Shown one piece after another: positions 34,477-34,675 of a DNA stretch of 64,000 bases. Below the pieces are notes generated by a model. It was not told where the DNA came from. It saw only the letters and a list, made by a program, of their open reading frames with translations, and searched no databases. This stretch comes from Iphione sp. A-MEVVRFRX5. Lineage: Eukaryota. Position numbers and translations under genes: made by a program. The stretch's first letter is position 1. Each line of letters opens with the position of its first letter. The stretch lies in NCBI GenBank assembly GCA_976226885.1, contig OZ320315.1:89404001-89468000 (forward strand), written 5' to 3'.

Positions 34477-34624
34477 AAAATTTTCAATCTGAATGACGGT
34501 TGTTATCCCTAGCATTCTATAGTACACACCTGTTACTTAGGACGTCACCCAGTGACTAAGGTGACGCTACCACACATCTGTAGTTGCTATATCAATACCC
34601 AAATAAATGCCTTATTTGGTATAT
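34477..34624 (-). repeat. E2 repeat A2 (148 bp)
   Basis: Reads identical to 38568-38715. Confidence 0.97.
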
Positions 34625-34675
34625 TGAATGACAACTATAACACACATAAATTGGGGGTAACATCCAAATTTAGGC
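34620..34675 (-). repeat. E2 repeat B1 (56 bp); includes the YR stop codon and shares TATAT with A2
   Basis: Identical to 34400-34455. Confidence 0.97.

Follow-up and report, generated by a model that had tools for sequence, protein, structure and literature searches.

A conserved hairpin at the circle junction of Ngaro-type retrotransposons as a candidate folded recombination site

Introduction

Integration of tyrosine recombinase (YR) retrotransposons is an open matter in passages of PMC7192593, where the specificity of the YR is described as experimentally unstudied and amplification of the circle junction as unsuccessful. The 64-kb window analysed here carries two Ngaro-type elements, E1 and E2, in which the joint between repeats B1 and A2, an internal copy of the element's joined ends (“circle junction”), is able to fold into an interrupted hairpin. 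Here, we addressed if this hairpin recurs in other families, how it is positioned relative to the exact element boundary, which strand folds and what role the structure may play. Neither a junction hairpin nor a YAA-NN boundary (cut after the second N) nor a strand bias is mentioned in the Ngaro passages of PMC8547959, PMC9210276, and PMC3783388, and passages of PMC7192593, PMC13465315, PMC3266345, PMC6681497, and bioRxiv 10.64898/2026.05.21.726589 describe no junction hairpin or attC-like mechanism for Ngaro or DIRS. The sole related structure mentioned is a possible priming hairpin at the 3′ end of DIRS-1 mRNA (passage of PMC7192593). Literature searches, whose coverage does not extend to the founding Ngaro paper and supplements, returned no description of folded-site integration for retrotransposons.

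Materials and Methods

Folding was scanned over the whole 64-kb window in 56-nt segments with a step of 4 nt and GC binning. Homologues of the YR provided a motif pattern by which loci (L numbers) were collected from metagenome contigs (at least 119 stretches, with flanks for 80) and from contigs that belong to records of bacterial genomes (12 and 51 further stretches). The latter contigs are probably eukaryotic carry-over; elements combining reverse transcriptase (RT) and YR were seen on them at L006-L015, L143, L152, L153, L159, and L167. Retention of a locus required a match to RT or to YR at E<1e-10, and removal of 11 near-duplicates and of tails shorter than 150 nt left 84 tails including those of E1 and E2. 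These were searched blindly and strand-neutrally, with Watson-Crick pairs only, for an outer stem of at least 6 bp and an inner stem of at least 5 bp, at least 12 bp in total. The junction was bracketed by repeat ends alone in nine families (E1, E2, L011, L042/L029, L052, L055, L074, L090, and L167). Data on element ends come mostly from single short-read contigs, and YAA+2, where the outer stem ends on its inner side, served as the reference point for their alignment.

Results and Discussion

Two Ngaro-Type Elements in the Window

E1 and E2 both lie on the minus strand and share the layout A1-gag-RT-YR-B1-A2-B2 (Table 1). Their split direct repeats, A1-[ORFs]-B1-A2-B2, form identical pairs, and the ORFs follow each other on a single strand in the order gag, RT/RH, YR, with RT and YR assigned by Pfam, gag and RNase H by position. 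The gag-like ORF of E2 gave no Pfam match, and the region downstream of its RT is put down as RNase H from the place it occupies in the layout. No DNA adenine methyltransferase was matched by Pfam in the three ORFs filling the element, which separates it from PAT and DIRS. Since Ngaro elements, members of the DIRS order, are described as A1-ORFs-B1A2B2 without methyltransferase (passages of PMC8547959, PMC9210276, and PMC3783388), E1 and E2 are, judged by sequence layout and the missing methyltransferase, Ngaro-type YR retrotransposons. Their RT cores are 22% identical. E2 appears to be young because its repeats are fully identical and its three ORFs are open.

The YR of E2 keeps R162, K192, H271, R274, W297, and Y305, the active site being intact. 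In profile comparison it matches Cre over the full length (E 2.4e-22) and IntI4 locally and weakly (E 6.4e-5); its predicted fold (pLDDT 93.9) retrieves Cre first in a fold search (TM 0.73) and IntI in 34th place (TM 0.62). By profile and modelled fold, this enzyme is thus Cre-like, closer to the double-strand enzyme Cre than to IntI.

The window has the look of animal DNA: apart from the two elements, it contains microsatellites, a LINE-type ORF open at 58468-62919 (endonuclease and RT, 953 aa) with a 230-aa ORF upstream, and an inverted repeat pair of about 340 nt (32856-33195 / 44942-45283, 87-89% complementary) which flanks E2 at a distance and probably represents two copies of a dispersed repeat. 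An assembly gap consisting of N only (14806-14954) begins 21 nt past the A1 end of E1 and leaves a short flank there.

Table 1. Positions of the Ngaro-type elements, their repeats and ORFs, and the junction structures in the window.
Feature	Position	Strand	Remark
Element E2	34400-38715	minus	
Repeat A1 of E2	38568..38715	minus	148 nt, 100% identical to A2
gag-like ORF of E2	37545..38627	minus	360 aa stop to stop, Cys/His-rich C-terminus
Reverse transcriptase of E2	35559..37544	minus	PF00078, E 1.7e-16
Tyrosine recombinase of E2	34670..35653	minus	327 aa, Cre-like by profile and predicted fold
Repeat B1 of E2	34620..34675	minus	56 nt
Repeat A2 of E2	34477..34624	minus	
A2-B2 spacer of E2	34456..34476	minus	21 nt
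Repeat B2 of E2	34400..34455	minus	100% identical to B1
E2 junction hairpin	34592..34627	minus (probable folding strand)	36 nt
Full E2 fold-back with extra distal stem	34581..34637	minus	
Putative E2 crossover	between 34622 and 34621	minus	CAA+2; position pinned from other families
Element E1	9943..14784	minus	further Ngaro-type element, with A of 94 nt and B of 194 nt
E1 junction hairpin	10229..10271	minus	z -5.1
Putative E1 crossover	between 10265 and 10264	minus	

Junction Hairpins of E2 and E1

The hairpin of E2 consists of a 6-bp outer stem (34592-34597/34622-34627), an internal loop formed by C 34598 and TA 34620-34621 (2x1 on the minus strand), an 8-bp inner stem (34599-34606/34612-34619), and a 5-nt apical loop (34607-34611); an additional stem distal to the outer one (34581-34586/34632-34637) lengthens it. 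Folded as DNA it reaches -8.0 kcal/mol, with z of -6.68 on the plus and -5.38 on the minus strand, and none of 200 shuffles folds as well. The junction of E1 adopts a similar form with a 7-bp outer stem, a 3x3 loop, a 9-bp inner stem, and a 5-nt loop, and the fold scan ranks the E1 and E2 junctions third and fourth in the window. The first place belongs to a hairpin near 61986-62030 within the LINE-type ORF.

The outer stem of E2 covers the overlap of A2 and B1; it needs the end of B beside the start of A and is lost at the integrated ends: fold energy amounts to -11.3 kcal/mol at the junction, -6.1 at the A1 end, and -4.3 at the B2 end, and z in the A1-end region is +0.36/-0.88. In E1 the outer stem is partly kept at A1 (-15.3 versus -19.9) because the flank repeats the 4-nt core. 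The earlier note had described the E2 hairpin with exactly this geometry, the same interrupted design in E1, and the loss of the core-spanning outer stem at the E2 A1 end, all of which are borne out here; the additional distal stem was not part of that description. In the A repeat of E1, a second hairpin adjoins the junction hairpin, and a further A-B stem closes both (10190-10290, z -6.2).

Recurrence in Distant Families

The blind search detected 21 hairpins in 20 of the 84 tails (41,308 nt), while 30 dinucleotide shuffles contained 1.6 on average and 4 at most; RT coding DNA gave 3 in 44,000 nt and host DNA 4 in 53,600 nt. Many of the 64 tails free of matches are short and probably end before the junction. 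Not every match is a junction hairpin: that of L042 lies in the flank, that of L044 is the inner part of a larger one, and those of L013, L163, and L165 are unassigned. Among 19 elements whose junction is necessarily contained in the contig, 15 carry hairpins judged clear by eye, with L010 and L043 atypical or weak and L014 and L083 unconvincing. RT cores of the eight families compared (L052 left out) are 22-55% identical, and hairpin-bearing rows are scattered over the RT tree, which comprised no named reference elements (L031 has the hairpin but is unlabelled there).

Folding of the junction exceeds that of shuffled sequence in the families where repeat ends alone define it (z of -5.4 for E1, -4.6 for E2, -3.6 for L011, -3.8 for L090, and -4.0 for L167), and the junction is the best-folding segment of the tail in five of the eight families tested. 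In the remaining ones, some segments fold better, namely 16 of 145 in L042 (z -1.95), 3 of 38 in L074 (z -1.18), and 5 of 136 in L052 (z -3.03). The last 10 nt of B pair with the A repeat of their own element at 7-9 positions (mean 8.2) as compared with a mean of 6.1 of 10 for A repeats of other families (72 cross pairs, permutation p 5e-5), bearing in mind that the anchor inside each bracket was set by the stem, which somewhat favours the cognate score. Complementarity thus follows sequence change.

Several features are shared by the structures. The difference in internal loop length between the 5′ and 3′ sides is 0 in nine, +1 in eleven, +2 in one, and negative in none of the 21 matches, shuffles being symmetric. 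In 12 of them, against 0.23 in shuffles, YAA is no more than 2 nt away from the inner terminus of the outer stem; in the curated set T occupies position -1 in 18 of 25 sites and G follows the motif in 13 of 25, YAA being absent from L167 and L061. Inner stems maintain pairing without conserved sequence; they measure 5-12 bp, often only 5-7 bp, and the outer arm with its extension is often 11-14 bp long. Stem-to-stem (AA-to-TT) spans vary continuously from 28 to 44 nt without helical phasing. The proposal that E1 and E2 share a design built from unrelated sequence and that selection acts on structure is accordingly upheld in its main part: shuffled junctions fold far worse, other families possess the structure, and B pairs better with its cognate A than with that of another family. 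The “unrelated sequence” has to be amended by the short common motif.

One might suppose that such hairpins are palindromes arisen by chance in repeats rich in AT, or that a promoter palindrome situated in A has nothing to do with the junction. The tails are indeed AT-rich, and the outer stem of E2 alone, with 7 of 10 pairs, is equalled at 15.5% of tail positions (10.9% for E1). Nevertheless, the excess found by the blind search and the dependence of pairing on the cognate repeat render a chance origin hardly credible and effectively refute it, and a promoter would act at A1, precisely where the B end required for the outer stem is missing.

The Stem Edge as Element Boundary

In the alignment, agreement with the junction starts at the stem edge for all eight left ends, with two differences in L052, and extends as far as this edge for all five right ends. 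The adjoining base differs in the flank at four of the left ends (L029, L052, L055, and L167) and at two of the right ends (E1 and L029). The net crossover is accordingly placed at the stem edge. In 9 of 9 repeat-bracketed families, the boundary agrees with the inner limit of the outer stem, usually after YAA-NN; preceding bases are AATT in five of the nine, CAATA in E2, and TAATG in E1. For E2 taken separately, repeat ends bracket the crossover to 34620-34624. Shared bases between element and target number four in E1 and five, in a TA-rich flank, in E2; no target homology is needed in L029 and L055, and the 13 flanks examined exhibit no clear common consensus. The hairpin is real, conserved across distant Ngaro families and tied to the exact element boundary.

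Preference for the Sense Strand

Inside the outer stem, the first pair deviating from Watson-Crick rules is, as read on the sense strand, G·T in 12 (8 GT and 4 TG), A·C in none, and another combination in 8 of 20 cases. The same position in shuffles yields G·T, A·C, and others in the proportion 51 : 44 : 211, and local composition predicts about 18% G·T and 15% A·C (binomial p 3e-5). Two other positions tested revealed no G·T bias (4:3 and 3:4, n=20-21). Folding favours the sense strand in 16 of 21 cases with DNA energies and in 17 of 21 with RNA energies, the difference from the antisense strand being -0.6 kcal/mol as DNA and -2.3 as RNA. Prevalence of G·T over A·C at the stem edge suggests that it is the sense strand of the element, minus in E1 and E2, that folds. 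The hairpin of E2 had initially been written on the plus strand; that strand does fold, although the working one is probably minus, with the reservation that the bias fits mRNA as well as sense DNA. Tyrosine recombinases cleave where the bound arm ends on its inner side and form a 3′-phosphotyrosine. By this polarity, cleavage at the stem edge would fall on the 5′ arm, i.e., on the sense strand, in agreement with the G·T bias.

The strand bias bears upon the assumption that proteins bind the inverted repeats in duplex form, with YR or an accessory factor occupying a core site and a second, inverted one, and that folding is incidental. A weak AA-N6/7-TT pseudo-dyad is present on both arms and resembles core sites of Cre/Xer-type enzymes, the YR itself is Cre-like, and covariation is expected of inverted sites too. 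Yet the 12:0 ratio of G·T to A·C would be meaningless in duplex DNA, the spacing varies continuously, inner stems pair without conserved sequence, and YAA+2 cuts on both arms would give an overlap of 2-3 nt where YRs usually have 6-8 bp (passage of PMC4792948). We regard this explanation as quite unlikely.

A rather unlikely but somewhat more probable explanation is that the hairpin acts in reverse transcription or end-joining, in mRNA or nascent cDNA, while the YR uses an ordinary double-stranded circle; the mirror sequence in A would splint or position the B end for template switch, circle closure, or packaging. The G·T/G·U excess on the sense strand grows when RNA energies are applied, mRNA is known to be single-stranded and of sense polarity, short inner stems are unproblematic for an RNA signal, and the DIRS internal complementary region (ICR) is needed after first-strand synthesis (passage of PMC7192593). 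On the other hand, element ends in the circle model are set by the recombinase cut, which gives no reason for a stem-edge boundary in all nine families, and a splint should pair on both sides of the joint, while the A side is mismatched or wobble-paired.

The Junction as a Putative Folded att Site

The junction-dependent fold, the stem-edge boundary, the sense-strand wobble, and the short motif accompanied by free stems are most simply explained if the hairpin is a folded single-strand recombination (att) site, like integron attC or CTX-phage attP, a reading which in our analysis has somewhat better than even prospects. The Cre-like recombinase of the element would recognise its site only with the sense strand folded on itself. 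Reverse transcription, according to the published model, would produce a circle with the B-A junction; the sense strand would fold, either in the form of ssDNA or within one cruciform arm, bringing the B end into pairing with its mirror copy 20-30 nt inside A. A YR subunit on the outer stem would then cut at YAA-NN, whereby the last paired base would carry the tyrosine and a free 5′ end would arise at the internal loop with its loose G·T pairing. Exchange of one strand with host dsDNA would demand hardly any target homology or none, and the insertion would be finished by replication or repair. Each integrated end retains only half of the structure, and the internal B1-A2 copy would be inert while double-stranded, so that insertion may be proposed to be one-way.

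Several facts speak against the folded att site: the inner stems, often 5-7 bp, do not offer the length of a complete second YR arm, no extrahelical base is seen to be conserved, RNA folding accounts for the strand bias equally well, and the enzyme resembles Cre more than IntI. Moreover, the DIRS-1 cDNA described is antisense and the double-stranded circle model is kept, though the same cDNA is single-stranded and can be integrated (passages of PMC7192593). A cruciform on a supercoiled circle would reconcile antisense cDNA with sense-strand folding.

Integron attC sites are described as having little sequence beyond a short motif, a central spacer that stays unpaired next to the cut, and a surplus of G:T on the strand that recombines (passages of PMC2727003 and PMC5027507). 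Ngaro junctions resemble them in the imperfect fold-back with outer stem, unpaired spacer, inner stem, and variable apex, in the boundary situated on the 5′ arm beside the spacer, in the G:T skew of one strand, and in the G often following the short motif (in attC it stands after AAC; passage of PMC2727003). The differences are no less substantial. The span of 28-44 nt contrasts with 57-141 bp of attC sites (passage of PMC5027507), RYYYAAC / GTTRRRY core boxes are absent from the table of 25 sites, and relaxed folds display no conserved extrahelical bases or recurrent bulge, the blind search itself having required unbroken inner stems. The donor is a retroelement, and its YR, Cre-like as it is, differs from the cognate IntI integrase with I2 insertion that attC implies. 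Thus the Ngaro junction hairpin is not an attC: it is shorter, lacks RYYYAAC, reveals no extrahelical bases, and belongs to a Cre-like enzyme. In the CTX attP(+)/XerCD system, a folded single strand mimics the duplex YR site without extrahelical bases or I2 domain (passage of PMC4792948); CTX, however, employs host XerCD and one fixed chromosomal site, while Ngaro encodes its enzyme and has flanks of no clear consensus.

The ICR/circle junction of DIRS-1 is an internal copy of the joined ends as B1-A2 is in Ngaro, and the terminal triplet there is most often ATT (passage of PMC3266345), reminiscent of AATT at the Ngaro boundary. DIRS nevertheless has inverted repeats with an ICR in place of split direct repeats, and its model needs a 3-bp target match, which the left ends of L029, L055, L052, and L167 do without.

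A tentative generalization, to which we give slightly less than even chances, is that Ngaro and perhaps all split-repeat YR retrotransposons integrate via a folded ssDNA att site of ~35-45 nt with a Cre-like cut and near-zero target homology, as a eukaryotic, independently evolved counterpart of attC. The finding supplies a short candidate substrate, strand, and bond for YR retrotransposon integration. If true, the folded att site would explain the intact junction kept in each chromosomal copy without rearrangement and the low need for target homology, and would extend folded-strand recombination from bacteria to eukaryotes in the form of a compact structure-specific integrase system. Even with another mechanism, the hairpin and its YAA-NN edge provide a rule for exact calling of Ngaro ends.

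Additional Features of Ngaro Tails

On the sense strand, 11 of 84 tails carry a C-rich tract, CCC(A/G/T)CCC(A/G/T)CC, whose start coincides with the A2 3′ end or is a few bases away from it; on the other strand none of the 84 has it, and E2 is without it. It was located at 10165-10173 (minus) in the window and, in element orientation, at L010 4352, L011 4801, L014 1512, L040 5513, L042 4142, and L090 4298, and it may mark a template-switch end or a priming site. In L029 (~4158-4221, element orientation), the host flank just past the B end folds strongly into a hairpin (-15 kcal/mol); the copy, which lacks A2-B2, possesses A1 and only one B. In L037 (2211-2810) and L043 (764-1360), the YR stop is followed by a conserved, coding-like stretch of about 600 nt, which could correspond to the hydrolase ORF known from some Ngaro elements. 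In L093 (251-460), a repeat resembling B lies upstream of gag together with a junction hairpin stronger than any other (-22 kcal/mol), an arrangement reflecting either assembly collapse or a permuted copy integrated via the other junction.
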